Source of the DNA: a virus
IMG/VR virus record: IMGVR_UViG_3300042923_000275
Span: 4,059 to 68,058 of that record
Strand: one strand, 5' to 3'
Length of the DNA: 64,000 nucleotides
Made by a program: the position numbers and the translations under genes
In this document: positions 49,550 to 64,000 of the stretch, piece after piece
Position numbering within the stretch: the first letter of the stretch is position 1
Layout of the letters: each line of letters begins with the position of its first letter
The notes under the pieces: model-generated
The model's input: only the letters and a program-made list of their open reading frames with translations
What the model was told of the DNA's origin: nothing
Databases searched by the model: none

Positions 49550-49571
49550 GAAGGATGGGAGAGTAATGAAA

Positions 49572-49777: not shown

Positions 49778-49783
49778 CTACCA

Positions 49784-50860
49784 TTACGGTAATTCTACCT
49801 TATATTGACGGAGATCAACGATCTCGCTATGTTTGGGTCCAGTACCAATCATAGTTACTGGCACGCCGCTTTCGTCTTCGACTTTTTTAATGAAGTGTTT
49901 TGTTTCCTGAGATAACAAGTTGTAGTCGGTGACACCATAATCGCGGTAATTGATATAATTCACGAAATTCATTGCGATCTGTGTCGGCCTGTTGATCATT
50001 ACCATATATTGTAATCGATCGAAGTCGAATTCGAAAATTCTGCGTACCTTCTGAGTGACAGTAGTCCTCTCCAATAATGGTTTCGGTGAGCCTGACATCG
50101 CAGTAATTTCACCCCATGTGAGTTCTTTGCCACCCATCGGACCGGACCATCCGATCTGTTCGCCACGTTCATTGAATTGATTGCCGACGCGGATTGGATG
50201 ACACCTCATTACGGCAATTACGTGATCGATAGCCTGAATTGGAACGCCGCAATCTGCTACAACCTGACCAACATGTGTCTGTCGAGATGTCGTGTACGGA
50301 TATGCCATTCCGTAATTGATATCGAGGTCAAAACCCTGTGACCCCTCGATCATTACCATGTGATTTTGTTCGATATGGTTATTGATCTCATACTCAGTAT
50401 CAGACAAATACAGACGCAATGATTCGACATCGCGTGCAAGCATTACATTTCCCCCACGCATGATTTTGTCGGCTTGTGCCGCACCGCAGCCCTTTTGAGT
50501 CGAAGAAATATGACCAAGTGCTTCCGCTTCGATTTTCTTGTGTTTATCATTGATAATCATAGCACGAGGGTGAATATGTAGCCTGTGACCGCACAAGAAT
50601 TCACTGAGTTCGCGCTCAAGAATACTCAGTGTAATACCAGCGCCTGGACCGATGAACAATTCTGTACGTCCATTCACTACTGCCTGTGGGATTTGCTGTA
50701 CCATAAATGGTTTTCCTTCATCGCTCACCCATGTATGACCAGCATTGGTATAGAAGTTACAGATGGCGGCATCATAGTTATCCTTGATCGCCATATATCC
50801 GACAAATTTGCCTTTGCCCTCGGACCCTGCCTGACCACCAAATAATACATTAGTTGACAA
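49784..50860 (-). CDS. purZ: PurZ-type 2-aminoadenylosuccinate synthetase (PurA family)
   Basis: GSEGKG (Ser at the PurA catalytic Asp), NAGHT, PIRVGN, TTVT..RR, NFVN in place of TKLD; TTG start after GGAGGT. Confidence 0.75.
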   Translation of the reverse strand: MSTNVLFGGQAGSEGKGKFVGYMAIKDNYDAAICNFYTNAGHTWVSDEGKPFMVQQIPQAVVNGRTELFIGPGAGITLSILERELSEFLCGHRLHIHPRAMIINDKHKKIEAEALGHISSTQKGCGAAQADKIMRGGNVMLARDVESLRLYLSDTEYEINNHIEQNHMVMIEGSQGFDLDINYGMAYPYTTSRQTHVGQVVADCGVPIQAIDHVIAVMRCHPIRVGNQFNERGEQIGWSGPMGGKELTWGEITAMSGSPKPLLERTTVTQKVRRIFEFDFDRLQYMVMINRPTQIAMNFVNYINYRDYGVTDYNLLSQETKHFIKKVEDESGVPVTMIGTGPKHSEIVDLRQYKVELP

Positions 50861-50909
50861 TGGAACAACCTCCAATATTCTGAATTTCCTGCGATTATTA
50901 TATCGTCTG

Positions 50910-52127
50910 TTATGCTTCGTTTGCTAAATTCGCGATCTTGCGCTTGTTCAGTGACGGTTTAGTAAAGGACACATTGGCACAATTATCGATCATAGTCATA
51001 ATAATTTTCTGTCCCTTTACCTCCGGATGTTTCTCCAGTTTGGTTTTTTCCAATTTGAGACAGTCATTTAATACATGTTCCAACTCGAACGCCGACATTA
51101 TTTCCCTTACTGCATTAACTGGATATTCCTTACGGCGTTGTTGGCTGAAGTAGAACTCAGAATCTCCAACCACCAGAGTATTCTTGCGGTCGGCTATCAT
51201 GAGATTCTTGATCGCCACTTCTATTTCTCCTAGCTTCCCTTCTATAGCCTTCTTCTGATATGTAAGTATTTCTTTTTCTTCCCACAGTGCTAATGCATCG
51301 TTTTCGTCAACGATAGCCGTCTTCATGATAAGTGCCTGTTTATATGTATTACAATCTCCACGTAGATCGCAATATCTACAATACTCATTTAACTTCTCTT
51401 TGAATTCCTTATCGTATAACATCTGTTGCCATACGTTCTCAATAAATTTGATAGTATCTTTTCTCTGTTGGTCAGTTCTCGTCGATCTGAATTCGCCATG
51501 TAACGGCTGGTCTAAGATTAATATGACGTTCTTTGCCCATGGATATAGCTGTCTTGCCACTATATCATATATGCTCATTTGTAGATGGTTTTCTACTTCA
51601 TCATGGCTAAATGGTTGTATGTTTGTTTTATAGTCCCTAATAATAATAGTATCCTCATTGAGTTTATTAACTCGGTCGATGAATCCCAATATTGGCACAT
51701 TACCGACATACATTGGCGTCCCCGTGTCCGTCTTCACATCGTATCCGAATTGCACCTCCACCCCGATGATCTCCCCTGCAAATGGTTCGTCTCTAGATAA
51801 GTATGCATCGATGATCTCGATACCTCTATTATAGAAATCGAAATCAGTCAGCTTATATTCCTGCCAGTATGCATCAAATAGCTTTCGAGCATCCTCGAAA
51901 TTCTGCTTGGCTGGTTCGTTCGCTAGATGTTCAAAAACCTCATGGATGATACGACCAAACATTGTGAATACAGTATCTGTTCTTGGTGCGTTGTTTATAT
52001 AGGTATTTGCCCATTGTCTCGGACACTGGAGATACGCCCCCAATCCGGAAGATGAAGTACGGTCAAGTTTGTTTGGTTCAATGATATCACCGTCTTTGAT
52101 TGCGTCCTCTATTGTCTTATTACTCAA
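50910..52127 (-). CDS. PD-(D/E)xK exonuclease, Cas4/AddB-like with 4 Cys
   Basis: CPR, G.IIH..FE, GFIDR...DYKT, CRYC....C. Confidence 0.85.
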   Translation of the reverse strand: MSNKTIEDAIKDGDIIEPNKLDRTSSSGLGAYLQCPRQWANTYINNAPRTDTVFTMFGRIIHEVFEHLANEPAKQNFEDARKLFDAYWQEYKLTDFDFYNRGIEIIDAYLSRDEPFAGEIIGVEVQFGYDVKTDTGTPMYVGNVPILGFIDRVNKLNEDTIIIRDYKTNIQPFSHDEVENHLQMSIYDIVARQLYPWAKNVILILDQPLHGEFRSTRTDQQRKDTIKFIENVWQQMLYDKEFKEKLNEYCRYCDLRGDCNTYKQALIMKTAIVDENDALALWEEKEILTYQKKAIEGKLGEIEVAIKNLMIADRKNTLVVGDSEFYFSQQRRKEYPVNAVREIMSAFELEHVLNDCLKLEKTKLEKHPEVKGQKIIMTMIDNCANVSFTKPSLNKRKIANLANEA

Positions 52128-52149
52128 TATAATCCCTCCATATATAATA

Positions 52150-52183
52150 AAATGCCCTACGAGTGTTATATCGTAGGGCATTT
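52150..52183 (-). terminator. 13-bp hairpin with AT-rich tail
   Basis: AAATGCCCTACGA/TCGTAGGGCATTT. Confidence 0.5.
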
Positions 52184-52221
52184 CTTGGACGCTAAACTGA
52201 GATGTTGTATTGTTCTACATC

Positions 52222-52536
52222 TTATATCTTGATCCCATCTTTGGGCGTCAGTTTCTTCTCTATCATAGTTATCTTACCGTCGGTGATGGCCATGCCGAGT
52301 ACCTTATCATTCTTCTCAAGTATATATAATATCTTTCCATTAGTGACGTCTATATACTTGTGCATAGAGCCGATCGGCAACTCCTGTGTAGACTCTAATT
52401 TCATAAATGGTCTAGGCTTATCCACACTGGTCATCCCGACGGTGTGTTCCGGTGTATTAGCCATCGCTATCGACATTGTACATACGATCATGATCGCGAT
52501 TAGGAAATTTATGGTGGCTCTGAACATAAATATCAT
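52222..52536 (-). CDS. hypothetical exported protein
   Basis: Signal-peptide-like N-terminus. Confidence 0.55.
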   Translation of the reverse strand: MIFMFRATINFLIAIMIVCTMSIAMANTPEHTVGMTSVDKPRPFMKLESTQELPIGSMHKYIDVTNGKILYILEKNDKVLGMAITDGKITMIEKKLTPKDGIKI

Positions 52537-52919
52537 CCCCTATTATTCCGAATATACCATATGAGGTGCAAGATGAGCATTATAGATATAATATAAAATA
52601 CTACCGGATCGATCGTCGGTATAAAGAATTTTACCTTCTGCACGCGCAATAGCGTATGACATTTCTCAAGTACTAAACATTAGACTATTTCATTGATTTT
52701 AATTCCAATATTACGAATAGTATAGTGACGAACGATACGATATACAGCATACTATCAAATATCATGGGGTTGATAGCAATATCGAACATAATAGACCTCC
52801 TACGATTATCATGAACAGTATGATTGGAACATTCTTTCCAAATTTTGTGTATATCTCGTCTGCCCGTCTGCTATCTTCATCGCTCCAACTACTAAATAAC
52901 AATTTCATATAATGAAATC

Positions 52920-53288
52920 TCATACCGCATCAACCGCCTTCATAGATGATTCACTATTGTATCCGAACGTACCGTTGTCATATCCGATATGCCAATACCA
53001 AATGGCACCTCTCCTGTGGTAGTTACCAAGTATAGTACCAGCACCATATTTATAATGCATTATCCGATCTCCAACCTTGAACCTATCACTCTTCAGTCCC
53101 TTGATAATCCACCAACCATCAATCGAACAGCCCGGATATAATTCGACTATCTTATCCCGTATTGCTCTATTTATTTCGTCTTCTGCGATATTATCCGGTA
53201 ATTCGATTTTCAATCGGTAGCTTACATTCATCTTGGTGATCGCGTCTATGTGGTATAAAATGTTATAACCCACCACAAATTCACTCAT
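52920..53288 (-). CDS. hypothetical protein with SH3-like C-terminus
   Basis: FKVGDRI.H.KYG.GTI motif; GGAGG SD. Confidence 0.6.
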   Translation of the reverse strand: MSEFVVGYNILYHIDAITKMNVSYRLKIELPDNIAEDEINRAIRDKIVELYPGCSIDGWWIIKGLKSDRFKVGDRIMHYKYGAGTILGNYHRRGAIWYWHIGYDNGTFGYNSESSMKAVDAV

Positions 53289-53290
53289 AT

Positions 53291-54388
53291 CTATGCCTCC
53301 CATATACAATCTCTTAATGGTTTGTCGATATCGCGAAATCGTTTAAACCTCGGCAGGTAATACGCATCCAGTGTACCTTCTGGGAAATACGTGATCTCAA
53401 TTGGTAATCCTATATACATTCCCTTATCTCCAGATATCTCAGCACGTAATTCGTCACTTATGCCAGATGACACCTTACCAACATATGTTAGTTCCATACT
53501 TTCAATATCTGGGAATGTTTTGAATACATCTTGTAGATCATAATATTTAGTATGTCGTAATTGCTCGGCGGTAGCCGTTCCGGTCGGTATGTATTGTGCC
53601 ACGATTAGACTACCAATCCAGCCATTCGTGAAATACCTATTGACAGCCATAACCGGGCCATTTTTGTCTACGAGTTTGCGTCCGTTTTTCATCACCTGGG
53701 TGAATTGGTCCGGTTCCGTATAGCCGACAATTATAACATCCGCGTCCTTCTCGGCCTTGATTTTATACCATGTGTTTTCACGCTTCTTACCAGGGATGTA
53801 GAGTGAGGATAGATTCTTTAGTACAATACCCTCGCGACCGTTCGCTAATTCTGTATCGAGCAATTGTTTCTTCGCGTCTGCGCCATAGACCATTGGTAGT
53901 AGTATAACGTATTCACTATCGATGGTCTTCATTATGAATTCCGCCATTTCGTATCGGAATTGTAGGTCGGAATTGATCATCAGATTATTCCTGAACTGTG
54001 GGCAATCAAACACAATAAATGTAAGACCGCCACGCTCAGTTTGTAATCTCAATGCTCTCGCCACATCACTACCAAGCACATTGCTGGTTTTGTTGTAACT
54101 CTCATATCCATCGTCTTCTATGAATGCCACTTCACCGTCGATTATAAAGCTCAGTTCGGTGCTACACTCTAGAGCCTGTACTATATGCGGTAATAGATCG
54201 GTATATTCGGTACGTTCACCGTCATTTCTGCCAGCACCGCGACCATATAACCTGACTATGCCCTCGGTCTTCTCGGCTATTAACCGAAAACCGTTAATCT
54301 TGCGCTGTCCAACATATCGATCGTCGGACATGAGCTGTGGGATTTTATTTTCCTTAGCTGGCTTTGCTCCCATTGCATCAATAGGCAT
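53291..54388 (-). CDS. ATP-dependent DNA ligase
   Basis: RKINGFR (motif I), IIDGE, FD, EGIVLK, W.KIK, PRF.RFR. Confidence 0.9.
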   Translation of the reverse strand: MPIDAMGAKPAKENKIPQLMSDDRYVGQRKINGFRLIAEKTEGIVRLYGRGAGRNDGERTEYTDLLPHIVQALECSTELSFIIDGEVAFIEDDGYESYNKTSNVLGSDVARALRLQTERGGLTFIVFDCPQFRNNLMINSDLQFRYEMAEFIMKTIDSEYVILLPMVYGADAKKQLLDTELANGREGIVLKNLSSLYIPGKKRENTWYKIKAEKDADVIIVGYTEPDQFTQVMKNGRKLVDKNGPVMAVNRYFTNGWIGSLIVAQYIPTGTATAEQLRHTKYYDLQDVFKTFPDIESMELTYVGKVSSGISDELRAEISGDKGMYIGLPIEITYFPEGTLDAYYLPRFKRFRDIDKPLRDCIWEA

Positions 54389-54400
54389 TGTTGCTACCTC

Positions 54401-54847
54401 CTATAATATGTATATTTTTACCATTTGTCTACCAAACTTAAGTGCCTCTTCGTGAGTATTCATGAACTTATCTATACGATTTCCTTTGATCGCCCCTCCA
54501 ACGTCTGCCGCAACCATCACCCCATGTCCGTTGGCGTATATCTTACTCCCTAACCTAAGTACATTCGGGTCGACCGCCACCATACCAACCTCGGCTCTAA
54601 CTCCGGTAGCAGTTATACCATCTGTCTTACCGCAACAGACCTCACATGGGCAATACGCGGTCATCTCGACAGTAATCGTGCGTATCTCACCACGTGAGGC
54701 CATTTGTTCGATCCGTTCTCTATATGTAGGTTCTTTTATTTCTTCGTATATATGCGGCTCGGTGATGTTATTTGCGACCTCAGGATTACAAGATAATAGT
54801 GATATTATAATCGCTACTCCTGCTGTACCTCTGAGGAATCTTCGCAT
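54401..54847 (-). CDS. 3D-domain cell-wall protein, possible lipoprotein
   Basis: TAYC, TATG, VAVDP, AADVGGAIKGNRID; LLSC after a hydrophobic N-terminus. Confidence 0.85.
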   Translation of the reverse strand: MRRFLRGTAGVAIIISLLSCNPEVANNITEPHIYEEIKEPTYRERIEQMASRGEIRTITVEMTAYCPCEVCCGKTDGITATGVRAEVGMVAVDPNVLRLGSKIYANGHGVMVAADVGGAIKGNRIDKFMNTHEEALKFGRQMVKIYIL

Positions 54848-55239
54848 CCGTCAACCTCCTTGACCATCTCCATATGATTTAGTGGCATTGCCTTCAATTT
54901 CCATTTGTGTTTGCGATTCTGTTCCGACAATTGTATTACTAAGTAACATGATGGGCATTGGGCTGTGATGATATCACCAAATTGATCGGATTTCACTACT
55001 CTTTTCAGACTCATTGGTTCGCCACATGATAGACAACATAGATTACGCAATTCCGCATCCCGGATATCGGCCCATGCCACTATTGGCTCTGATAAATACT
55101 CGTCCGACTGTATCCTGTGGTTATTTGTTTTACAATCCACACACTTGACCTTCGATGCTGTGGCAAATTTCGTTACTTCAACACTTTTGCCACATACGAC
55201 GCACGGACATGTCTTGGTTTCGTCGTATCCTGTAGTCAT
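54814..55239 (-). CDS. zinc-ribbon hypothetical protein
   Basis: Four CxxC pairs. Confidence 0.65.
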   Translation of the reverse strand: MTTGYDETKTCPCVVCGKSVEVTKFATASKVKCVDCKTNNHRIQSDEYLSEPIVAWADIRDAELRNLCCLSCGEPMSLKRVVKSDQFGDIITAQCPSCYLVIQLSEQNRKHKWKLKAMPLNHMEMVKEVDGCEDSSEVQQE

Positions 55240-55241
55240 TT

Positions 55242-55994
55242 TTAGTTAATCCTCCTATCAATAACTGATTGAATCTCCTCGGTATAATGTTCACACCACG
55301 ACTTCCTGAGTCTTTTCAAGTACTGTGATACACAGGCAGTAGATACTCCCCATTCATCGGCTATTTCGCGCTGATATGATACCGAATTATCTCTGTCTAC
55401 GCCATTATTTATAGTATCGAATAGCTGTAACACTCGTCCACTTAATTTGGCTCGAAACTCCTGTATAGACATTCCATCCATTACCATTTCTTCCACCAAT
55501 TGCTCAGTTCTGGTGGCGAATACATTATCATCCTTAACCTCAGAACCAGTGATCTGTACTACATCTACGCGATGGCTATGACACTTGGGGCATACCCATT
55601 CCGTAAACTTCTTAATTACCACATCATGCTTCTTAAGGGTTTTTGTCGGTCTGCATGTGTGACCACAATCCAGACATGTCTGTTTCGTATTACCGAATAC
55701 CTGTTGTCTGAAGTATGAGCGCACTTTCCAAATTCCTTTATTGATTAGATAGATTATTGGATTGCCGATGCTCATATCTACTTCTGATATGGCGTGTGCG
55801 ACGCCTATCATGAATTCCTGTGAGACGTCATCATTCTCGGCGAGTCTATTCTTATTCATATATCGCGCAATAGCACGTGGCATGTGATAGCACCGTATCA
55901 TGACGAGTAGATCATTAGTGGCTCGTTCGTCGCCTAATTTAGCTAATTTCAACAGACGTAGGCAATTTATTTCAACATCAACATTAATAGCCAT
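55242..55994 (-). CDS. sigma-70-family factor with a zinc-ribbon insertion
   Basis: AK.GD..A..L, DD..QE..IG region 2; QREIA..WGVS..CVSQ region 4; start uncertain (alternative 56018). Confidence 0.75.
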   Translation of the reverse strand: MAINVDVEINCLRLLKLAKLGDERATNDLLVMIRCYHMPRAIARYMNKNRLAENDDVSQEFMIGVAHAISEVDMSIGNPIIYLINKGIWKVRSYFRQQVFGNTKQTCLDCGHTCRPTKTLKKHDVVIKKFTEWVCPKCHSHRVDVVQITGSEVKDDNVFATRTEQLVEEMVMDGMSIQEFRAKLSGRVLQLFDTINNGVDRDNSVSYQREIADEWGVSTACVSQYLKRLRKSWCEHYTEEIQSVIDRRIN

Positions 55995-56047
55995 AATCTC
56001 ATCTCCCACGGGCGGCATTATCTTAGCCGCCCATCCTTCATACTTTA

Positions 56048-56518
56048 TTAGCCAACTATTTCTGTTTTGGTGGCTACTGTACGTTTTTCTTTCAATCGGT
56101 CATTACGGCGCGCTTTAGTAAATGCCTGTTGACATGACTTGCAACGAGTCACCTGGAATGCATCCTGTACCTTAATAATTCTCTCGGCTCCACAGTCCTT
56201 GCAATTGATTGCTGTAGTCTTGCCGTGTAGAACCGTCCCATCTCCGGTGGTGGTCATTGTAGTCTTTGGTTTCTGCTTTGGAATTACATCAGTGTCACCT
56301 ATAGAGGCCTGTTTAGTGGTCTTCGCTGGTTTTTCCTTTTTGATGGTGTCGGTGGCCTGTGCTACTGTTTTCTGTTGGTCGGTGGTAATTTCGTCTTGTG
56401 GTACCACCAGAGACTTCTTGATTTTTGCCCCGCAGGTATCACATCTGAGAAAACCACGTACTCCTTCAACTAGATTACCAGTACATCCAGCGAGTATACA
56501 CTTATGATTCGATTCCAT
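56048..56518 (-). CDS. zinc-ribbon hypothetical protein (paralog of 60679..61227)
   Basis: C.DCG..R.IK.QD.FQVTRC..CQ; GGAGGT SD. Confidence 0.75.
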   Translation of the reverse strand: MESNHKCILAGCTGNLVEGVRGFLRCDTCGAKIKKSLVVPQDEITTDQQKTVAQATDTIKKEKPAKTTKQASIGDTDVIPKQKPKTTMTTTGDGTVLHGKTTAINCKDCGAERIIKVQDAFQVTRCKSCQQAFTKARRNDRLKEKRTVATKTEIVG

Positions 56519-56547
56519 CTAGTAGACCTCCTTTATTATCTGCGAGT

Positions 56548-56602
56548 GGCCTCGTCAGCGTGGACACTATCCACGGACCGGACTCAGTGTCCGGTTTCGG
56601 CC
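56548..56602 (-). ncRNA. type II hammerhead ribozyme
   Basis: GGCC-GAAA-CCGGA..TCCGG-TC-CGTGGA..TCCACG-CTGACGA-GGCC. Confidence 0.92.
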
Positions 56603-56668
56603 TACTGACTTCCTTGATCTGCTTTCCTACTTCCGATATCCTTATCAGAGGGATAGCTTTTTTTCGAC

Positions 56669-57010
56669 TTACGTCTGGGTATCGTGCTTGTATATCTCAT
56701 CAGCTAAACACCCAATAATCTCGTTCAATCGGTCAATTTGCTGAGTGGTAAGTAAGTCTTCGATACCCATCATTCCGCTCAAACTTCGTACGATCGCAAC
56801 CGATTTCTTAAATATCCGTTTCCCCCGGAGTCCTTCGATATCTATTTCCCAATCGATTGTTGTACCTGTTCTCAATGCTTCCATAAAAGATGTTGCTTCA
56901 TTAAATTTCTTATCTCTAGTTAGTGCCTTGAGAATGCGTACGGACTGTATGTATATTTCTACCCGTGCCCTCTCCGCGAGACGTGATTCTATGGATTGTG
57001 ATTCGTTCAT
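56669..57010 (-). CDS. hypothetical protein
   Basis: AAGGAGGT SD. Confidence 0.7.
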   Translation of the reverse strand: MNESQSIESRLAERARVEIYIQSVRILKALTRDKKFNEATSFMEALRTGTTIDWEIDIEGLRGKRIFKKSVAIVRSLSGMMGIEDLLTTQQIDRLNEIIGCLADEIYKHDTQT

Positions 57011-57131
57011 CGTACACCTCCTTCTTCGATCAGTCCTGCCATCCGCCCTACAATATTCGCGGTGGGTTGGATGCCTCGTTCTGAGGCGGCTTTGCGTATC
57101 GTCCGTGGTCTGCGATTGCGCCGCTGTACGC

Positions 57132-57275
57132 TTACTTAACGTACTTGCCTATTTCTACTGTTAGTAGATCGAATTCAGCCAATTCCTCTTTTGTGAATGC
57201 GTCACGGTTGTTATCGTGTATTGCTATCTTGATGGCCTGTATCAGTAGTTTGCGCTGTGTGACATTCAGTTTCAT
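57132..57275 (-). CDS. hypothetical protein
   Basis: MKLNVTQ start after GAGGAG. Confidence 0.5.
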   Translation of the reverse strand: MKLNVTQRKLLIQAIKIAIHDNNRDAFTKEELAEFDLLTVEIGKYVK

Positions 57276-57429
57276 GTTTAATCTCCTCTCATATTTCAGA
57301 TACTCGATATATCTCGTGTATTTGTTCTTATAGATTGCAAATACGTAACGGGCTTGCTTAGCAGATGTGACGACTATACCAGACCTCATTACGTTGGCTA
57401 TGTGTTGTGCGTACGTTATCTGGTTGTAT

Positions 57430-57675
57430 TCAAGATCGTAAGTACGGTAGTACACGTACATCCTCCAATCCACCCTCTGTGTTCATAATCTCCACAAGCT
57501 GGTCGGCGGTGTGTTCTCTGATGTAGACTGTTTCGCGTGTGTAGGGACCACAGTCGCATCTAGTTCCGACGTAATGTCCACTCCCTGAGTGCATTGATTC
57601 GAATTTGAATTCGTGACCACATTCATCACATGTTCTCGATGCCCCTAAGGCAATCGTCTCTTTTGGAAAGGCCAT
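57430..57675 (-). CDS. hypothetical Cys-containing protein
   Basis: CDEC...CDCGPYTRE; AGGAGGT SD. Confidence 0.7.
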   Translation of the reverse strand: MAFPKETIALGASRTCDECGHEFKFESMHSGSGHYVGTRCDCGPYTRETVYIREHTADQLVEIMNTEGGLEDVRVLPYLRS

Positions 57676-57704
57676 GTTACTAACCTCCTATACTCTCTGA
57701 CATT

Positions 57705-57764
57705 GGACTCGTCAGCGTGGACACTATCCACGTACGTGGACCGGACACGGCCCACGTTTCGTCC
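57705..57764 (-). ncRNA. type II hammerhead ribozyme
   Basis: GGAC-GAAA-CGTGG..CCACG-TA-CGTGGA..TCCACG-CTGACGA-GTCC (GUA site). Confidence 0.9.
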
Positions 57765-57929
57765 TAGGTATGCTTACTTGGCTACCGCATTCACAATGAA
57801 TGCTCCTACCAGTAACATTCCACCGACAACTATCAATGAAGTGATCATGCTAGCATCTACGATAACGTCACATTTATCGCTATCTTCGTACTGACCTTCC
57901 TCATATTGATGTCGGCTTCCCCTCATGGG

Positions 57930-58094
57930 CTACTTCTTCTTCTCGTAGATTTGGACTTGTACTGTGTATACCTCATTGCCGATTTTCACGTCTTGGCGCT
58001 CATACCATCCTTCCTTACCGGAAGTGAATGTCTTTGCGGTGGTCTCCGCATCGATGGTGATACCAATGTGGTTGCTCTCTTTTACTACTTTCAT
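57930..58094 (-). CDS. small hypothetical protein (54 aa, not in track)
   Basis: MKVVKESNHIG...YEKKK, read manually after AAAGGAGGG. Confidence 0.6.
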   Translation of the reverse strand: MKVVKESNHIGITIDAETTAKTFTSGKEGWYERQDVKIGNEVYTVQVQIYEKKK

Positions 58095-58124
58095 GTAAAT
58101 ACCCTCCTTTATCTCTGCGGCCTT

Positions 58125-58178
58125 CGGCTCATCAGTACGGACTCTATCCGTAGACCGGACTCAGGTCCGGTTTCGCCG
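58125..58178 (-). ncRNA. type II hammerhead ribozyme
   Basis: CGGC-GAAA-CCGGAC..GTCCGG-TC-TACGGA..TCCGTA-CTGATGA-GCCG. Confidence 0.92.
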
Positions 58179-58268
58179 TTGCGAGGCTTGTTGTTATCGT
58201 TAGCGCACCACCACCACCGATTACACTATGGGTATCGTATGCCTGATCTTGAGCGCTAAACACCGATT

Positions 58269-58508
58269 TTAAAATTTGATGCTCTGAATCGCTACGCATT
58301 GGTCTGTAGCCTTAGAGAGTATATCAGCTCCTATTAATGCCATTATAGGCATGACATTTGGGCATCCTGTCTGCATACACGTTATGATGAACTTGATCTG
58401 GTTATTTTCTTCTAGCATGGCACATTTGATCACCAGATAGCTCCCACAGTCAGGACAGATTTTATCAACCAGTAACCCTTCGTAGTCGCTCAGGTCATCA
58501 ATTCTCAT
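58269..58508 (-). CDS. zinc-ribbon hypothetical protein
   Basis: CPDCG...C...C. Confidence 0.6.
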   Translation of the reverse strand: MRIDDLSDYEGLLVDKICPDCGSYLVIKCAMLEENNQIKFIITCMQTGCPNVMPIMALIGADILSKATDQCVAIQSIKF

Positions 58509-58509
58509 C

Positions 58510-58695
58510 TTATACCTCCCCCTCCGACTTACTTAAAGCCTCAGTTTCACATCTCTGAATTTGACCCCACGCCGCTTCTTCTGATATTTCGGTACCGAAG
58601 ACCGTATTACCAGTCTTGGTGTCCGTAATGCGATAGAACCATGGTACGTTTAGAAAGTGATCGACCCTTTTGACCTCTTTTATAAACCTGTTCAT
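58510..58695 (-). CDS. hypothetical protein
   Basis: ORF track; coupled to the upstream stop. Confidence 0.55.
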   Translation of the reverse strand: MNRFIKEVKRVDHFLNVPWFYRITDTKTGNTVFGTEISEEAAWGQIQRCETEALSKSEGEV

Positions 58696-59066
58696 TCCTT
58701 CGACTCCTTTACTTTAATTAGATATTTACGTGCCTCGCGTAACTTGTATGCCATGTCTAGATCGCGTCCACGTCCGTTGATTAGTTCGGTATCCGTGTAT
58801 CTTTTATATCTCTTGATTATCGAGTTTATCTCGTGGTCTATTGATTTGATCGCGAAATCTAGAAATGATATTGTGGTACTCTCGTATACGTACTTACTTC
58901 TGCTAGTGTTTATTGCTAGCATCACCGCGCTCTTGAACAGCATAAGTTGTGATTTCTCGTTGTCATCTTCGGATTCATCGATAGTCGCTATAATTACCTC
59001 TACAGCACTTAAGATATCCTTCATTTGGTTGTCTTCTAAATAAGGCATTCTCCCCATCGTTACCAA
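58692..59066 (-). CDS. hypothetical protein
   Basis: ORF track; GAGGAG SD; exact start uncertain. Confidence 0.6.
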   Translation of the reverse strand: MVTMGRMPYLEDNQMKDILSAVEVIIATIDESEDDNEKSQLMLFKSAVMLAINTSRSKYVYESTTISFLDFAIKSIDHEINSIIKRYKRYTDTELINGRGRDLDMAYKLREARKYLIKVKESKE

Positions 59067-59085
59067 CTCCTCTATTTCTAATATC

Positions 59086-59138
59086 GGCTCATCAGCACTG
59101 GTTTACCAGTGGACGTGGACCGGAGTCCACGTTTCGCC
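59086..59138 (-). ncRNA. type II hammerhead ribozyme
   Basis: GGC-GAAA-CGTGGAC..GTCCACG-TC-CACTGG..CCAGTG-CTGATGA-GCC. Confidence 0.92.
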
Positions 59139-59140
59139 AT

Positions 59141-59632
59141 CTATGCTCTGATCAGTTCGAGCCGTGTGCGTGATATCAGCTCTAATACCTGCATAAGTGG
59201 ATAGTCCTCATCTACATTCCCGGTCTTACGACCCTCGATATTCCTGGCTAAGCCGTCTAATTGGAGTACGGAATCAATGCCGACGCCGAGGTCTATGTCC
59301 TGGGATGTTACGGTGCTTATTAGCCATTGTAGAGCTGCAATAATACGTGGTGTGTTTCCCTCGTCGTCGATTATATCTCCTATGTCATAATCCCTGTAGT
59401 CCGAGACCATTTCATTTAGCCAGTCTTGCAGTACAGTGACGGAATTCTCATATTCCCAATACGCATCCGGCTTGGTTATGATGTTTAGAGCATCGCATAG
59501 TGCCTCCTGCCTAGATATCAATCCCTCTAATTCGTATCCATCTTCCGATGCCTCTTTACCCATCTCCTCTATATCTCGGTCAACATCCTCTTGTAACCCA
59601 CGTAATTCCCTTAAGTAGTCTAATGTGTTCAT
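59141..59632 (-). CDS. acidic hypothetical protein
   Basis: AGGAGGT SD; D/E-rich. Confidence 0.7.
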   Translation of the reverse strand: MNTLDYLRELRGLQEDVDRDIEEMGKEASEDGYELEGLISRQEALCDALNIITKPDAYWEYENSVTVLQDWLNEMVSDYRDYDIGDIIDDEGNTPRIIAALQWLISTVTSQDIDLGVGIDSVLQLDGLARNIEGRKTGNVDEDYPLMQVLELISRTRLELIRA

Positions 59633-59661
59633 TTCATTACCTCCTATTTCCCTGCGGCTTC

Positions 59662-59717
59662 AGGCTCGTCAGTGCGGACACTATCCGCAGACCGGACCTT
59701 GTGATCCGGTTTCGCCT
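59662..59717 (-). ncRNA. type II hammerhead ribozyme
   Basis: AGGC-GAAA-CCGGA..TCCGG-TC-TGCGGA..TCCGCA-CTGACGA-GCCT. Confidence 0.92.
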
Positions 59718-60076
59718 TACTTGATTGGCGGTACGTACCGCTCATTGCGGTGACCACAATCTGGGCACATCAGCTGTGCGAACACTCCCTTCTCTACGCC
59801 TACCACCTGATATCTTACTATACCACACATCGTGCAGTTTGGCGGTTGATACCTCTCCAGTATTACCTCATCTATGTTGTATTTCGAGTATGTCACTACC
59901 AAGATATCGCCATTCGGCATCTCGGCTCTGTGATCGTCGACCCATTTTCCTTTGTTGTCCATAACGTACCGCTTCGCCACGGCTATCACGGCCTCGCGCA
60001 CGTCGTTCAAGCTGATTGTTTCCCCACGCCTAGAGCATGTACGGTGGAGGATTGCACGCCATCTCGAAGCTGTCAT
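59717..60076 (-). CDS. hypothetical protein with C-terminal zinc ribbon
   Basis: CTMC...CPDC; GGAGGG SD. Confidence 0.65.
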   Translation of the reverse strand: MTASRWRAILHRTCSRRGETISLNDVREAVIAVAKRYVMDNKGKWVDDHRAEMPNGDILVVTYSKYNIDEVILERYQPPNCTMCGIVRYQVVGVEKGVFAQLMCPDCGHRNERYVPPIK

Positions 60077-60157
60077 AGTATTTTCCCTCCGATATATTTG
60101 ATAACTAGCCTAACCGATCTCCAAGCCAATCTAGCCGCTAGGTTCTGTCTGAGCATG

Positions 60158-60664
60158 TTACCTATCCTCCTCCACAATCTGAGATGCCGCCTTAAAGCTA
60201 TGTTCCATGGCTATGTAGGAATGGTGGATTACTGCATCTGTATGCTTTAACTTCTCTGTGATTAAGCTAGCCACCAGAGCGGCGGCGATGTGTGCGGATA
60301 CGGCGTGACGATGTGCAGTTGCCGCATCAAGGTGAGCCTCAGCCACTAGATAGGCCCCAGCTACCAAATCGCTGTTAGCCTTAGCCGCATCGCTGGCATT
60401 CCAGGCATGTCTGTTGGCCTCGAAGTAGTTGTTTTCCTCTGCGGCCTTAACTGCATCTGCTTGATCGCGTTCAGCTTGCTCGAATGGATGCTCGGTATTC
60501 CTGTCCCGTCTCATTTCCCTCCTGTATCTGAGACCATTGGAGTCTCGATCACCATGTTTCCCCTGGCACGTGGTGAAGGCCATATTGGTGGTGTTACCTC
60601 GCCACCCATGGAGGCCGGACCGAGATAGTCCTGCACCCATGGCTGGCGAGGTGGATTGCTCCAC
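60158..60664 (-). CDS. Ala/His-rich helical protein related to the U-free genes
   Basis: TEHPF and DAATAH..A..AH.AAA motifs; start uncertain. Confidence 0.6.
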   Translation of the reverse strand: MEQSTSPAMGAGLSRSGLHGWRGNTTNMAFTTCQGKHGDRDSNGLRYRREMRRDRNTEHPFEQAERDQADAVKAAEENNYFEANRHAWNASDAAKANSDLVAGAYLVAEAHLDAATAHRHAVSAHIAAALVASLITEKLKHTDAVIHHSYIAMEHSFKAASQIVEEDR

Positions 60665-60678
60665 CTCACCTGATTCGC

Positions 60679-61227
60679 TTATTCCTTTGAGGCTTGGTCG
60701 GCTTTGAACTTGGCTAGCAACTCGGCGGCGAGAGCGGCATCTGCTTCCTTGGCTAGGCGTATCTCGGCGCGTTTGTCTTTCCTCTTCTCAGCGCGCTTGG
60801 CATTGCGGATCTTCTTCTGACACTCCTCGCATCTGGTGACCTGGAAGGAGTCTTGGATTTTGACCGTTCTGGTGGTTCCGCAATCCTGGCAGGTAATCTC
60901 GGTGGTTTCTCCAACCAGCTTGCGTCCGTTCGGTAGGATTGTCACCTTGGTCTCTACGGTTGGCTTGGTGAGCTTGCGATGTAGTTTGGCGATTGCGGCT
61001 AGATGGGCGATCACGGCATCTGCGTCAAGTACCGGGGCGTCGAGGACGACTGTCATGCTCTCGATTGTCTCTTTGATCTCAGTGATTTGCTCTGCCGTCA
61101 GCGTGTTGGTGTCTACCTCGGTGGTCTCGATGGTTTGGGTCTCGGATTGGTTGTTTTCCTCGGCGATCTTGACGGCTTGGTCGATTTCGGTGGTGGTGAC
61201 TTGGTTGTTCTCGTTGTGCTTTTTCAT
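60679..61227 (-). CDS. zinc-ribbon/coiled-coil hypothetical protein
   Basis: AAAGGAG SD; C.DCG..R..K.QD.FQVTRC..CQ. Confidence 0.75.
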   Translation of the reverse strand: MKKHNENNQVTTTEIDQAVKIAEENNQSETQTIETTEVDTNTLTAEQITEIKETIESMTVVLDAPVLDADAVIAHLAAIAKLHRKLTKPTVETKVTILPNGRKLVGETTEITCQDCGTTRTVKIQDSFQVTRCEECQKKIRNAKRAEKRKDKRAEIRLAKEADAALAAELLAKFKADQASKE

Positions 61228-61471
61228 AGGTGTCTCCTTTCGTCACGCCCGCAATCTTAGTAGATGGCTGGCGTGTTGCACCGATTGTACGGCTGGTGCG
61301 CGCTCTATTCGGTCACGGCGTCTTCGTCGTGCCGCAGGGGCGTCGAACTCGGTTTCCCTTCGTTCGGTGCTCCTGCCGCGCGGCGATGGTTTCCCCGCCG
61401 GGTCTCGTTGGGTCGGTTTCCCTTTAGGTCTCGGTGGGTCCGTTTCCCCTCTCGTCCGTCGCGGGTTCGCT

Positions 61472-61565
61472 TTGGTCCGTTAGCTCTTTAGTCCTTTAGT
61501 AGACGAAAGCCTTTGGTCCTTTTGAGTGTTAGTCCTTTAGTCGCATGAAGGGTTTAGTCCTTTAG
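61472..61565. repeat. 12-bp direct repeats (TTAGTCCTTTAG) with a 41-bp period
   Basis: Exact copies at 61488, 61529 and 61554; variants at 61472 and 61513. Confidence 0.8.
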
Positions 61566-61634
61566 CGAGTGAAAGGGCAGGTTCCCGGTCTGCTGTTGTC
61601 TGCTCGGCCCTGTTGGGCTTGGCGTGGTGCTGTT

Positions 61635-61691
61635 GGCCCTGTCGGGTCGCGCGGGCGTCGGGCCTGTCTCCCGGCGTCCGCGCCGCCCGGC
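61635..61691. repeat. GC hairpin repeat, copy 1
   Basis: Arms identical to 62813..62867; loop differs. Confidence 0.85.
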
Positions 61692-61725
61692 TGGGTGGCG
61701 GCGGGGTGGGTCTTCTCGCGTCCCG

Positions 61726-62736
61726 CTACTCGGTGGCGCGTCGGGCGTGGTCTGCGGCTTGGCGGGCGTGGTCGGCTGTCCTCCTTCCTCTCTCCTCGGC
61801 GTCGTGCCCGTCGTCGGTGGTCTCGCGTGCGTGGGCCTGTGCTCTGGCGGCCTCGGCGTGGGCGCGTGCGGCGTGGATGTGTGCTCGGCGTGTCTTGGCC
61901 TCCTCGGCGGCCTCGCTGGCCCTCTCTGCCGCCGCGCTGGCTTGGTCGGCGGCCTCGCTGGTGGCCTCGCCTCCGTCCCTGCCGCCCGCCTCCTGCTCGG
62001 CTTGGGCCTCGGTGGCGGCCCGGTTGGCGGCGTGGTGTGCGGCGGTGGCGGCCTCCTCGGCTGTGTCCTCGCTCTCGTCCCGCTCGGCGTCGTCGGTCCG
62101 CTCGGCGTCGGCTCGTCCTGCGGCGGTCTCGTGCGCGTGGGCGGCCCGTCTGCTGGCCTCGGCGGCCTCGTCCCGTGTCGCGTCGCTGGCGGCCTGTGCG
62201 GCCCTGCGTGCTCGGCGGTCCGGGTTGGCCTCGTCGGCGTTGTCGCTGGCGGCCTGTGCGGCTCCGGTGGCGGCCTCCTCGGCTGTCCGGGCGGCGTCCC
62301 GTGCGGCGTCTGCCTCGGTGGTCGCCTCCTCGGCCTCGTCGGCGGCCTCCTCGGCCCGGCGGGTGGCGTGGCTGGCGGCCTGGGCGGCCCGGTGTGCGCT
62401 GGCGGCGGCCCGGTGTGCGTGGGCCGCCCACCCGTCGCTGGCGGCGGCCTCGGCCTCGCTGGCGGCCTCGTGGGCCTCGGCGGCGGCCTCGTGGGCGCGG
62501 TTGGCGGCCCTGTGGGCGCTGGCTGTGTCCGGGTGCTCGGCGTCGCCGTGTGCGCGTGCGGCCTCGGCGTGTCGGGTGGCGGCGGTGCGGTGTGCCGTGG
62601 CGGCCTCCTCGTGTGCTCCTCGGCTGGTGTCGGCGGCCTCGTGGGCCTCGCGTGCGGCCTCGCTGGCCTGTCTCGCCGCCTCGGTGGCGGCTGTGGCCCC
62701 GTGGCTGGCTCTCTCGGCTGTCTGTGCGTGTGTCGT
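61726..62736 (-). CDS. nearly U-free Ala/Glu/Arg/His-rich protein (336 aa, putative ACG start; not in track)
   Basis: GAGAGGAG SD, 9 nt, then ACG ACA; GCC/GAG-periodic frame; only T-containing codons are TGG, ATC and the TAG stop. Confidence 0.7.
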   Translation of the reverse strand, partial: TTHAQTAERASHGATAATEAARQASEAAREAHEAADTSRGAHEEAATAHRTAATRHAEAARAHGDAEHPDTASAHRAANRAHEAAAEAHEAASEAEAAASDGWAAHAHRAAASAHRAAQAASHATRRAEEAADEAEEATTEADAARDAARTAEEAATGAAQAASDNADEANPDRRARRAAQAASDATRDEAAEASRRAAHAHETAAGRADAERTDDAERDESEDTAEEAATAAHHAANRAATEAQAEQEAGGRDGGEATSEAADQASAAAERASEAAEEAKTRRAHIHAARAHAEAARAQAHARETTDDGHDAEERGRRTADHARQAADHARRATE

Positions 62737-62812
62737 GGCGTCCCTCTCCTCTCGCGCCGTCCGGTGTCCCCGGCTCGGCGGCGCGCCTTGGCTGTGGCGG
62801 CGCGCTGGCCCC

Positions 62813-62867
62813 GGCCCTGTCGGGTCGCGCGGGCGTCGGGGTGGTCCCGGCGTCCGCGCCGCCCGGC
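62813..62867. repeat. GC hairpin repeat, copy 2
   Basis: GGCCCTGTCGGGTCGCGCGGGCGTCGGG-loop-CCCGGCGTCCGCGCCGCCCGGC. Confidence 0.85.
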
Positions 62868-62892
62868 GGCGGCTCGGTGGTGTGGCGGCCCG

Positions 62893-63609
62893 CTACCGCG
62901 CCCCGGCGCGGGCGGCGGCCCTCTGTGCGCGGGCGGCGGCGCGGTGGGCGTCGGCGGCCTCGGCGTGGGCTGTCGCGGCGTCCTCCTCGGCGGCCTCGTC
63001 TGCGGCCTCGCTGGTGGCCTGTGCGGCGCGGCTGGCGTCCTGCGCGGTCCGCCCTGCCTCCTCGGCGGCCTCGGCGGCCCGCTCGGCGGCGGCCTGTGCG
63101 GCGTCCTCCCTGCCCTCGGCGCGGGCGCGGGCGGCGTCGCTGGCGGCGGCCTCGGCTCTGTCTGCGGCGTCCTCGGCGGCGCGGCGGGCGGTCTGTGCGG
63201 CGTCGAACGGGTGTTCGGTGGCGCGGGCGGCTCGCTCGGCCTCCTCGGCGGCGCGGGTGGCCTGGGTCTCGGCGGCCTCGGCGTGTCCTGCGGCGGCCTC
63301 GGCGTCCTCCGCGCTGGTCGCTCTGGCGGCCTCGGCGGCGGTCTCTCTGGCGGCGGCGGCGGCCTGTGCGGCCCTCTGTGCGCGGGCGGCCCCTGCGCTG
63401 GTGGGTGCGGCCTCGGCGGCTTGGGCCGCGCGCTGGCTGGCGGCCTCTGCCCTGTCTGCGGCCTCGGCGGCGTCCTTCGCGGCTCCGGTCCTGCGGGCAT
63501 CCTCGGCTGGCTGGCTGGCCTCGCGGGCCGCCCGGTCGGCTGTGGCGCGGGCCTCTCTGGCCTCGGCTCTGCGCTGGGCGGCGGTGGGGCGGCTGTCGGT
63601 CTGTGTCAC
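62893..63609 (-). CDS. nearly U-free Ala/Glu/Arg-rich protein (238 aa, GTG start)
   Basis: GAGAGGAG SD, 9 nt, then GTG ACA; T only in GTG, one GAT, TTC (HPF) and TAG. Confidence 0.75.
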   Translation of the reverse strand: MTQTDSRPTAAQRRAEAREARATADRAAREASQPAEDARRTGAAKDAAEAADRAEAASQRAAQAAEAAPTSAGAARAQRAAQAAAAARETAAEAARATSAEDAEAAAGHAEAAETQATRAAEEAERAARATEHPFDAAQTARRAAEDAADRAEAAASDAARARAEGREDAAQAAAERAAEAAEEAGRTAQDASRAAQATSEAADEAAEEDAATAHAEAADAHRAAARAQRAAARAGAR

Positions 63610-63890
63610 GGTGGTGTGCTCCTCTCGTCGGCGTCCGCTGTCTGCGGCTCGTCGTGCCCGGCTTGCTGGCGCGCCGGGCGGCGCGTGGGCTGTGTGCGTG
63701 TCCGGTGGACCTCCTGTGGCGGCCCTCGTGGCTGGCCTCCCGGCGGCCTCGGCGGCTGGCCCGCGTGCGTTAGCCCGTCGGCGGCCTCTGTGGGCCTCTC
63801 CGGGCCTCCCGTGCGCTCCCGTGGCCTGTCGCCCTGCCGGGCGGGTGTCTGCCGGGCTGGCGGCCCGGCGGGGCGCGCGGCCCCACCACC

Positions 63891-63919
63891 AGCACAACAC
63901 AGCCGCGCGCCCGTGTCAA
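63891..63919 (-). promoter_or_regulatory. candidate early promoter: TTGACA-17 nt-TGTGCT
   Basis: Perfect -35 at 63919-63914; non-consensus -10 preceded by TGTG; lies just upstream of the A-free segment. Confidence 0.45.
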
Positions 63920-64000
63920 GGGCCGTGGCGGGCCGTCCTGGGCTGTGGCGGGCGGTGGGACGCAGGGGCGTTCGCCGCGCTCCACGGACCTCCGCCGCGC

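Follow-up and report, generated by a model that had tools for sequence, protein, structure and literature searches.

An operon head almost free of sense-strand T in a soil phage encoding PurZ

The genome of a phage from soil (IMG/VR record IMGVR_UViG_3300042923_000275) was analysed over a stretch of 64,000 nucleotides (record positions 4,059 to 68,058, hereafter the window), near one end of which the head of a minus-strand operon is purged of T over approximately 3 kb, genes and spacers alike. The locus raises the question of what could remove one base from one strand over such a length, in a phage that also carries a homolog of an enzyme of the 2-aminoadenine (Z) pathway.

Composition and extent of the island

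On the plus strand, window positions 61580-63884 (2305 nt) comprise 10 A, 852 C, 983 G and 460 T; the chance of 10 or fewer A is approximately 1e-274 under the genome A frequency, and approximately 1e-90 if A is taken as half of the local A+T. The T content of the island sense strand is 0.4%, its GC content is 77% against 45% for the genome, and its longest A-free plus-strand runs measure 552, 464, 310 and 291 nt. The record was assembled as a circle whose ends overlap by 127 bp (this repeat is the assembly overlap), and beyond the window, across the record junction, a third block, block C (genome 334-754, 421 nt), contains no A at all. The A-free plus strand described in the initial annotation is thereby borne out.

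Three soil runs contain the island with 0 differences and long contigs bridge into it, and it is therefore real DNA. Island contigs show 1.6-2.0x the depth of flanking contigs in runs X2 and X3, a depth that is derived from contigs and may include library bias. Genes, spacers and hairpins are all purged, as is a 421-nt leader that has no period-3 structure; because leaders and spacers are included, the constraint acts on the nucleic acid. A diversity-generating retroelement, considered for its adenine specificity, is improbable, a length of 2.3 kb and two complete genes being unlike a variable region.

Genes A and B

The main block contains the following features:

61580-63884, minus strand: main block, T-free on the sense strand and A-free on the template strand, with genes A and B and their spacers, about 80% GC
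63697-63715, minus strand: perfect SD (AGGAGGT) followed 9 nt on by ACG, in frame with gene A
62893-63609, minus strand: gene A, 238 codons plus TAG, SD GAGAGGAG with GTG 9 nt later
61726-62736, minus strand: gene B, 336 codons plus TAG, with ACG at the expected start position

That minus-strand genes are templated on the A-free strand, as initially proposed, is supported for gene A by its SD, the GTG at 63609 and the in-frame TAG at 62893; a second minus-strand frame on the same template, gene B, runs to the TAG at 61726 with strong period-3. Gene A has only four T-bearing codons (GTG, one GAT, one TTC and TAG) and displays a clear codon periodicity (G1 0.67, C2 0.53, C3 0.61). The ACG that follows the upstream SD is located 30 codons 5' of the gene A GTG (frame determined by hand: 63699-63609 = 90). 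Gene B has no canonical start codon, its ACG sits 9 nt past an SD identical to that of gene A, and internally T occurs in TGG and ATC codons only. At four-fold third positions T is found at 0/156 sites in gene A and 0/197 in gene B, that is 0/353 for both, versus about 0.2-0.3 in other genes.

Neither product contains Val, Leu, Met, Tyr or Cys. That of gene A (45% Ala, net charge -12, 4 Pro among 238 residues) was modelled by AlphaFold2 on the single sequence as four long helices (pLDDT 87, pTM 0.66), and that of gene B (38% Ala, 26 His, net charge -30) as five long helices (AlphaFold2, pLDDT 74). Both are thus predicted to be acidic, Ala-rich, all-helical proteins, built from the 12 amino acids that can be encoded without T.

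Promoter-like site, leader and spacers

The non-coding parts of the operon head are:

genome 754-334, minus strand: block C, T-free, probably a non-coding leader, without period-3 structure
63885-64000, minus strand: start of a central GC-rich part of normal A and T content, which runs over the junction to genome ~333
62770-62892, minus strand: spacer 3' of gene A with a GC hairpin, of which a second copy lies 3' of gene B at ~61600-61725
61228-61579, minus strand: non-coding spacer that separates gene B from the first gene of normal composition

The initial annotation had placed these genes behind a TTGACA promoter and considered them the most upstream of the minus-strand early region, and neither statement was confirmed. 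The hexamer exists at 63913-63918(-) but lacks an acceptable -10, and a scan of 60500-64000 found 0 sigma-70-type sites, so that none lies near genes A and B; on the circular map, approximately 9 kb of further minus-strand genes are located upstream of the island. The top promoter-like site is sigma-70-like, with 10/12 consensus matches, and is positioned at genome 917-889(-), upstream of block C. The DNA 5' of this site has a normal composition, and the purge begins ~125-135 nt past it (135 nt counted from its -10). The transcript predicted from here measures 3028 nt and contains 95 sense-strand T in total: 38 within the initial 126 nt, 47 in the central 333 nt that follow block C (genome 333-1) and 10 in the A/B block.

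The hairpins following genes A and B are near-perfect on the plus strand when G.U pairs are allowed (z -4.6 for the copy at 61600-61725 and -1.3 for that at 62770-62892), while the corresponding sense-RNA hairpins are interrupted by A.C mismatches (z -1.5 and -0.9, respectively). The spacer at 61228-61579 has approximately four GGGAAACC-type and five CTAAAGGACTAA-type repeats, and an inverted copy of the CTAAAGGACTAA-type repeat is found across the junction at genome ~318-335.

Downstream return of T

Two genes follow the island:

60679-61227, minus strand: g182, zinc-ribbon-like protein, the first gene of normal composition after the island
60158-60664, minus strand: g168, Ala/His-rich protein, where the ramp ends

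In g182 synonymous T is purged and the protein kept (four-fold third positions T 0.06, n=84, and C 0.60; T2 0.22). By gene quarter, T3/(T3+C3) amounts to 0/25, 5/25, 3/22 and 5/23 in g182 and to 8/23, 8/21, 15/27 and 10/20 in g168, so that synonymous T climbs back smoothly over ~1.2 kb (0.00, 0.20, 0.14, 0.22, 0.35, 0.38, 0.56, 0.50). A local alignment of g168 with gene A gave z=4.2, a score reached by 0/300 shuffles, and the two have in common a TEHPF motif that contains the only Phe of gene A; BLASTP of this pair was not significant. On this similarity, g168 is possibly a normally coded paralog of gene A.

PurZ and other genes bearing on a probable Z genome

Two genes of the window are relevant here:

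49784-50875, minus strand: purZ, adenylosuccinate-synthetase homolog of the 2-aminoadenine pathway (PF00709 2.6e-44; PHROG 1211 2.1e-66)
36661-37236, minus strand: Dut-like gene (PF00692 1.4e-24; PHROG 135 1.2e-31)

The purZ-like gene of the initial annotation is confirmed by its matches; it has 408 homologs at E<=1e-10, and the P-loop G-S-E-G-K-G is invariant across an alignment of 27 homologs. In Z phages the substrate of PurZ is dGMP. A PurZ homolog is also what the phage shares with the Z-genome phages (cyanophage S-2L, Vibrio phiVC8, Acinetobacter SH-Ab 15497, Gordonia Ghobes and Arthrobacter Wayne), from which the present phage differs in having a PolIII-alpha/PHP-type replicase (PHROG 405 9.9e-225; PF02811 8.1e-47) and not DpoZ, the Z-selective family A polymerase. 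To our knowledge, not all Z phages have DpoZ. The enzymes with which Z phages remove dATP are DatZ, MazZ (DUF550), DutZ or DUF5664 proteins; a scan of 30 ORFs of the present phage gave no match to HD-type DatZ or MazG, nor any phage RNA polymerase. Its Dut-like gene is of a type whose enzymes in PurZ0 phages, according to a passage of PMC12884076, have been shown to hydrolyse dATP and dGTP; by analogy it is a candidate dATP/dGTP diphosphatase of the DutZ type. The phage very probably packages Z in place of A.

Occurrence in other PurZ phages and in relatives

Thirty other PurZ records and 17 PurZ-negative controls were scored by composition. The initial annotation had proposed a test of the co-occurrence of purZ with A-free terminal segments; an island is present in two PurZ records (G031 and G023) versus 0/17 controls, a difference that is not significant (p=0.53), and the remaining 28/30 are without one, so Z phages manage without it. 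A stricter pattern test was passed by 0/20, and T drops to 13/300 in one PurZ-negative control contig (G086). The two islands nevertheless repeat the layout described here in otherwise unrelated phages, each having only 3 detectable proteins in common with the present one. They have the same sense-strand polarity, start 66-127 nt past a sigma-70-like site and are followed by a downstream ramp. In G031 (92,205 bp) T falls to 4/300, with 6.8% T across 2.4 kb at 69% GC; in G023 A falls to 9/300, with a 216-nt A-free run. The G031 island is leaky, whereas the present one is nearly absolute and has a separate T-free leader.

In all four closer relatives (4/4) the most or second most T-poor gene is the head of the homologous operon, and heads score lower than internal paralogs (0.33 vs 0.64, 0.42 vs 0.59 and 0.54 vs 0.68). 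Third-position A is also lower in relatives (0.19 in G009, 0.15 in G007), so that a general rise in GC3, for which translational selection could be responsible, accounts for part of the lineage effect. By PurZ, the nearest cultured relative is Bacillus phage vB_BpsS-140 (49% identity), which has the same module order and displays only a weak dip.

Origin of the island

Our preferred reading, which we put forward tentatively, is that the island results from selection for an adenine(Z)-free template strand at the head of a transcript read by the host RNA polymerase. The sense strand would have been rewritten at the nucleic-acid level, the absence of T leaving the copied strand without adenine, and the polymerase would read ~2.7 kb (leader and two genes) without meeting Z, which in the template would hinder it. 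The unit would be the first to be expressed, supplying the products of genes A and B early and in large amounts; plausible roles for these are DNA mimicry, anti-defence or an effect on the polymerase. The initial annotation had formulated a similar idea as a 'boot sector', which is supported only in part. PurZ, the Dut-like gene, the promoter-proximal unit with its essentially adenine-free template, the lack of a phage RNA polymerase among the 30 ORFs scanned and the repeated layout in two unrelated PurZ phages speak for it. So do, for the preferred reading, the purge of coding and non-coding parts alike, its onset shortly past a promoter-like site, the gradual return of T downstream and the T-poor operon heads of the closer relatives. 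On the other side, the template is not Z-free throughout, because 38 and 47 T persist at the start and in the central part of the transcript, the TTGACA has no -10, 28/30 other PurZ records are without an island, gene B has no canonical start codon, and the association with PurZ is not significant. Moreover, DNA of this same kind is what the host core polymerase has to transcribe across the entire genome. Tan et al. (2022) reportedly deal with Z and transcription.

Small promoter-proximal units that are read by the host polymerase and yield the first proteins are familiar from the pre-early, first-step-transfer region of T5 and the early leading end of T7 (gene 0.3, ocr), where Ocr is an acidic DNA mimic; those regions are of ordinary base composition, whereas here one base has been eliminated. 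The T5 pre-early genes lie in a terminal direct repeat, at the genome end that enters first, and by analogy, given the hint from depth, the island block may be one as well. In restriction-site avoidance by phages, and in ACA-less mRNAs escaping MazF, the sequence is likewise rewritten, synonymous sites included, to remove what an enzyme reads. Such avoidance drops words of 3-8 letters, whereas here one strand lacks a whole nucleotide for kilobases, a loss paid for with eight amino acids and perhaps a start codon. None of the passages searched in the Z-phage literature describes a base-free island.

Selection on the RNA is an unlikely alternative, though one with points in its favor. A U-free message would escape a U-dependent ribonuclease (a host toxin, a collateral CRISPR RNase, or RNase Y-type cleavage at AU-rich sites) or be unable to form U-tract intrinsic terminators, giving a long-lived, read-through early RNA. 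The purge indeed matches exactly the transcribed sense strand, leader and spacers included, from past the promoter-like site onward, no terminator-like site is found on the minus strand in 60500-64000, and the ramp may reflect partial protection. However, with 95 T in its 3028 nt the predicted transcript is not wholly without nuclease target, and its initial 126 nt and central part would remain open to cleavage by a U-specific nuclease; the hairpins 3' of both genes keep their A.C mismatches, even though A-to-G repair needs no T, and the recurrence in three unrelated PurZ phages, if above chance, would be left unaccounted for.

We judge a purely mutational origin to be equally improbable. Close to a strong promoter, a strand-specific process changing adenine (Z) to guanine on the template strand, such as error-prone patch repair where the polymerase has stalled at Z or the action of a deaminase (6-deamination of Z gives G), would have converted nearly every A, selection retaining only the indispensable ones, and the purge itself would be functionless. 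Block C (A 0, C 26%, G 45%, T 29%) resembles the phage average with all A turned into G (G ~48, C 23, T 29), two sites that would be expected to read ATG read ACG, the stems retain G.T on the plus strand, uncompensated in the RNA, and the ramp passes smoothly over gene boundaries. Genes A and B, however, contain far more C than such a conversion would leave, and their codons show a clean GCC-type periodicity. If an ordinary protein underwent T-to-C conversion, its Leu, Phe and Ser would become Pro, of which gene A has few, and a T-to-C converted g168 matches A and B no better than shuffled sequences do (z 1.8 and 0.9). Exact retention is seen for the GTG start, both stops and the motif-embedded Phe, and the identity of the three runs gives no sign of ongoing hypermutation. 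We know of no enzyme for strand-specific A(Z)-to-G conversion.

Still less probable is a non-transcriptional role in the DNA, as a long terminal repeat, a packaging or replication region, or a restriction-proof end. By logic, an adenine-free strand can hold no palindrome with A or T and no two-strand adenine-methylation site; the raised depth and the iteron-like repeats that flank the block, with an inverted copy on the far side, also fit. The depth, however, comes from contigs only and library bias may explain it, and a passage of PMC12944874 states that many restriction enzymes are already blocked by Z substitution. In all three phages it is sense-strand T that is missing, with the island right after a promoter-like site, neither of which a symmetric DNA reason predicts. 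Finally, that Ala/Glu/Arg-rich low-complexity proteins simply need few T-containing codons, as the composition of the gene A and B products might suggest, is hardly credible and is contradicted by the non-coding and synonymous-site data, since leader and spacers are purged as well, four-fold sites hold no T against a genome level of 20-30%, and the next ordinary gene, g182, is also depleted in synonymous T.

Implications for Z-DNA phages

It is possible, if somewhat doubtful, that operon heads with a modification-free template arose at least three times independently in Z-DNA phages, Z being an obstacle or a repair trigger for the host RNA polymerase at infection, and that the head genes (here two, one apparently ACG-started) yield the earliest products, which render the rest of the Z genome usable or protect it. 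If true, natural functional proteins would be encoded without one of the four nucleotides, possibly with ACG initiation in bacteria, and a simple sequence signature would mark the strand and the genes that are read first. This would bear on Z-DNA templates in synthetic biology and gene delivery, where the need for polymerases that read dZ templates is raised in a passage of PMC12944874. Should the island prove mutational in origin, the conversion of all adenines along 3 kb of a single strand would still be biology not known so far. Selection for an adenine(Z)-free template, if true, would mean that a fully substituted genome bears a transcription cost, which this phage solves in its sequence and not by an enzyme.

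Composition and extent of the base-purged island

The viral record comprises 68,058 bp, of which the window covers bases 4059-68058; its ends repeat 127 bp, so that the assembly is circular, with a 67,931-bp unit. The + strand of window positions 61580-63884 (2305 nt) contains 10 A, 852 C, 983 G and 460 T, which bears out the A-free strand described in the initial annotation; at the genome A frequency, so few A (ten at most) would occur with a probability of about 1e-274, and of about 1e-90 if A is taken as half of the local A+T. A third block at genome coordinates 334-754 (421 nt), located beyond the window across the record junction, has no A on the + strand (A 0, C 26, G 45 and T 29%) and lacks codon periodicity; it is best read, from its sequence, as a non-coding leader. 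On this + strand, the template of the putative T-free leader (L003), the 45% G includes many G runs. Together, the block encoding genes A and B, a central part with normal A and T, and the third block form a 3.05-kb island with an overall G+C content of 77%, compared to 45% for the genome. No depletion of any other base was found anywhere in the genome. Leaders, spacers and hairpins are purged in the same way as genes; the constraint therefore lies at the nucleic-acid level rather than the protein level.

The same stretch is present, with no differing letter listed, in three soil-metagenome runs from three studies, one of these runs not being marked as a possible source, and an assembly chimera is ruled out by contigs of 34.2 kb (run X2) and 33.4 kb (run X3) that bridge ordinary phage genes and the island without differences. 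In these two runs, short island contigs (window 61683-63970) had a k-mer depth 1.6-2.0x that of the long contigs flanking them (60400-61712), with contig-based depths of 1709-2037 versus 1020 in X3 and 730-838 versus 465 in X2; a 9.8-kb contig carrying approximately 1.1 kb of the island had a depth of 1.12x. The depth excess fits a direct terminal repeat of 2.4-2.6 kb, or a library bias toward DNA with few Z:T pairs (Z, 2-aminoadenine).

Genes of the island

The genes around the island are all encoded on the minus strand, including two within the A/B block:

Window 63609 to 62893, minus strand: gene A, with a GAGAGGAG box 9 nt ahead of the start and an in-frame TAG end.
Window 62736 to 61726, minus strand: gene B, with a GAGAGGAG box at the same 9-nt spacing as in gene A and ACG at the expected start position.

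A canonical start is impossible for gene B, because no T is available. ACG is found twice at 9 nt past a strong Shine-Dalgarno sequence, at window 62734-62736 (gene B) and at 63697-63699 (a start position in frame with gene A and upstream of it); either translation begins at these ACG codons, or starts were lost there. The ten retained sense T's belong to the GTG start, both TAG stops, single GAT, TTC, TGG and ATC codons, one TAA, and a perfect Shine-Dalgarno sequence, which holds one of them. Codon periodicity is strong in gene A (G1 0.67, C2 0.53, C3 0.61) and also in gene B, and T is absent from all four-fold third positions (0/156 in gene A and 0/197 in gene B), compared to approximately 20-30% in the other genes of the phage. 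The two products are composed only of A, R, E, D, T, Q, S, G, P, H, K and N, apart from a single F, W, I and V. Both are acidic (net charge -12 for A and -30 for B), and single-sequence models predict bundles of very long helices (A, pLDDT 87 and pTM 0.66; B, pLDDT 74).

No homolog of gene A was found among 8000 scored candidates, and queries with gene B, with the downstream genes g182 (60679..61227, minus strand) and g168 (60158..60664, minus strand), and with PurZ as a lone query sequence found none in the viral collection. Neither gene A nor gene B matched PHROGs; the predicted fold of gene A retrieved only generic helical bundles from the PDB, with nothing at E<=0.001; no nucleotide relative was found among GenBank phages, and Rfam gave no match at the gathering threshold in window 49000-64000. 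When the island DNA was used as query against 38 PurZ records, one match of 44 nt was obtained (E 1.6e-5). Judged from its sequence, g168 is a possible paralog of gene A with normal coding: their comparison gives a z of 4.2 and a common TEHPF motif that includes the sole Phe of gene A, the BLASTP match between the two being not significant.

Promoter-like site, polarity and downstream ramp

The TTGACA promoter proposed in the initial annotation was not confirmed: the hexamer is present at 63913-63918, an acceptable -10 is absent, and no promoter-like site was found in 60500-64000. The best sigma-70-like site nearby by consensus match is TATACA-17-TATAAT on the minus strand at genome 917-889, which lies 135 nt ahead of the purge start and is preceded upstream by DNA of ordinary composition. 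The 3028 nt of sense strand between this predicted start and the gene B end hold 95 T (3.1%), the first 126 nt accounting for 38 and the 333 nt after the third block (genome 333-1) for 47; the template of the predicted transcript is thus not adenine-free throughout.

The purge decays downstream and does not end abruptly. Synonymous T/(T+C) runs 0.00, 0.20, 0.14 and 0.22 along g182, and 0.35, 0.38, 0.56 and 0.50 along g168, with the genome level beyond. In g182 the second-position T is kept at 0.22, which implies that the protein was preserved while silent T's were removed.

Directly after the TTGACA box, 55 nt (window 63859-63913) lack T on the + strand, and hence A on the sense strand, a polarity opposite to that of the remaining island; similarly, another PurZ record, G031, has a 400-nt A-poor piece (60,400-60,800) ahead of its T-poor body. 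The spacer after gene B (window 61228-61579) contains two kinds of repeat, one of the GGGAAACC type (about four copies) and one of the CTAAAGGACTAA type (about five). A CTAAAGGACTAA-type copy in inverted orientation and the palindrome CTTTAAAG reappear on the far side of the A/B block and also upstream of the third block (genome ~318-335 and 780-850, L003). These repeats and the palindrome could be operators, iterons or packaging signals.

The putative Z pathway

The purZ-like gene of the initial annotation (window 49784..50875, minus strand) was confirmed as purZ. It accompanies a replication module encoding a PolIII-alpha/PHP polymerase, a Dut-like gene, an anaerobic ribonucleotide reductase, an adenylate-kinase-like gene, a primase-helicase, a helicase, RNase H, RecA, a ligase, an exonuclease and a sigma-factor-like protein. 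A scan of 30 ORFs revealed no phage RNA polymerase. According to PMC12884076, Dut-like enzymes of PurZ0-type Z phages hydrolyse dATP and dGTP, and a Z genome is therefore probable for this phage, as predicted from the presence of purZ and the Dut-like gene. The replicase (window 33086-36582) is of the PolIII-alpha type, with two overlapping ORFs and a separate PHP domain, which is unusual in that the described partner in PurZ phages is the family A polymerase DpoZ.

Comparison with other PurZ phages

Of 116 PurZ relatives found, 80 were kept; 38 served in the comparison with the island DNA and 17 were fetched by length and completeness. From the first 20 PurZ records 13 were fetched, and seven (G011-G017) entered a pattern test only. 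This test, which scored any 154-nt stretch with at most two A on either strand, was positive for 0 of 20 PurZ viral records, compared to 1273 such positions in this phage. As a composition metric, the minimum number of any one base in 300 nt was related to its expectation in 30 other PurZ records (1.72 Mb) and in 17 PurZ-negative controls (1.07 Mb). The controls came from 74 loci of a helicase family, with PF00709 in 0 of the 29 tested; 17 were fetched, three of them partly, and since they are mostly fragments of larger phages, the absence of PurZ applies within those fragments.

The lowest value was found for G031 (92,205 bp), with T at 4/300 or 0.04 of expectation, followed by G023 (44,586 bp), with A at 9/300 or 0.10; the next PurZ record reached 0.18 (for C), the others at least 0.26, and the lowest control 0.17. 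Two of the 30 other PurZ records, G031 and G023, thus stand out; at 2/30 versus 0/17 (Fisher's p=0.53) an association between PurZ and islands is not established by this sample. A C-poor stretch (11/300) is located near 26,861 in PurZ record G030, and near 10,600 in control G086, a PurZ-negative contig that is 53% complete, T falls to 13/300 at 58% GC, with 288 nt holding at most ten T.

G031 and G023 each have only three proteins detectably in common with this phage. In both, the missing base is sense-strand T, and the islands start 66-127 nt past a sigma-70-like site and ramp into normal genes. The G031 island also encodes an Ala-rich helical sequence followed by a normally coded Ala-rich gene; the Ala-rich proteins of the two phages show only weak similarity (z 2.9-3.7), and no homology is claimed.

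Four closer relatives (G001, G003, G005 and G009), with 15-17 replication-module genes in common with this phage, possess no island, with minima of 34-51 A per 300 nt. In all four genomes, the gene heading the homologous operon ranks as the poorest or second poorest in T, and it is poorer in T than its internal paralog (0.33 vs 0.64, 0.42 vs 0.59 and 0.54 vs 0.68), part of this effect being a general GC3 rise, as third-position A is also lower. The cultured relative Bacillus phage vB_BpsS-140 shows a weak dip only. The first-gene family, which is conserved and carries a RANR...FRTH motif without PHROG match, is present in G001, G003, G005, G009, G007 and G002 (e.g. L040:716-1567), where it heads the early operon and has a second, internal paralog; all six loci found (6/6) belong to PurZ phages. 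No counterpart of this family was found in our phage, where genes A and B occupy its position.

Possible explanations

Any explanation has to cover the following: one base is purged almost completely from one strand, the purge is tied to where a transcription unit begins, it weakens with distance, it affects coding and non-coding parts alike, and it recurs in PurZ phages that are unrelated. We rank first, as a possibility short of an even chance, selection for an adenine(Z)-free template strand at the head of an operon read by the host.

Selection for a U-free message, which we consider unlikely, matches strand and position and leaves the remaining U's, the unrepaired hairpins and the PurZ link unaccounted for. 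A mutational process acting on the template strand is given an equally low probability. It is favored by transition-type traces and the smooth ramp, by a third-block composition close to that of average phage sequence with every A changed to G, by ACG at two positions with start-codon geometry, and by the hairpin after each gene, which pairs almost perfectly on the + strand if G.U pairs are counted and displays uncompensated A.C mismatches in the sense RNA. It does not account for gene structure, and a purely mutational origin is opposed by genes A and B being far richer in C than conversion predicts, by the presence of only 4 Pro in the 238 residues of gene A, and by the sequence identity across the three runs. 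Derivation by simple A-to-G conversion of the neighboring putative paralog was not supported, as T-to-C converted g168 matched genes A and B no better than shuffles (z 1.8 and 0.9). A DNA-level role as terminal repeat, hinted at by the 1.6-2.0x contig depth, is improbable.

Selection for an adenine(Z)-free template agrees with the strand, the position and the recurrence of the island, and finds some outside support in PMC10504480. In the excerpts of the literature on Z phages and base-free blocks, no passage describing a gene block without one nucleotide was found. This first-ranked explanation is weakened because most PurZ phages have no island, because some template adenines stay, and because the remaining genome must be read anyway. 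The "boot sector" of the initial annotation, an A-free segment readable by host RNA polymerase, thus has partial support as an idea, short of demonstration.
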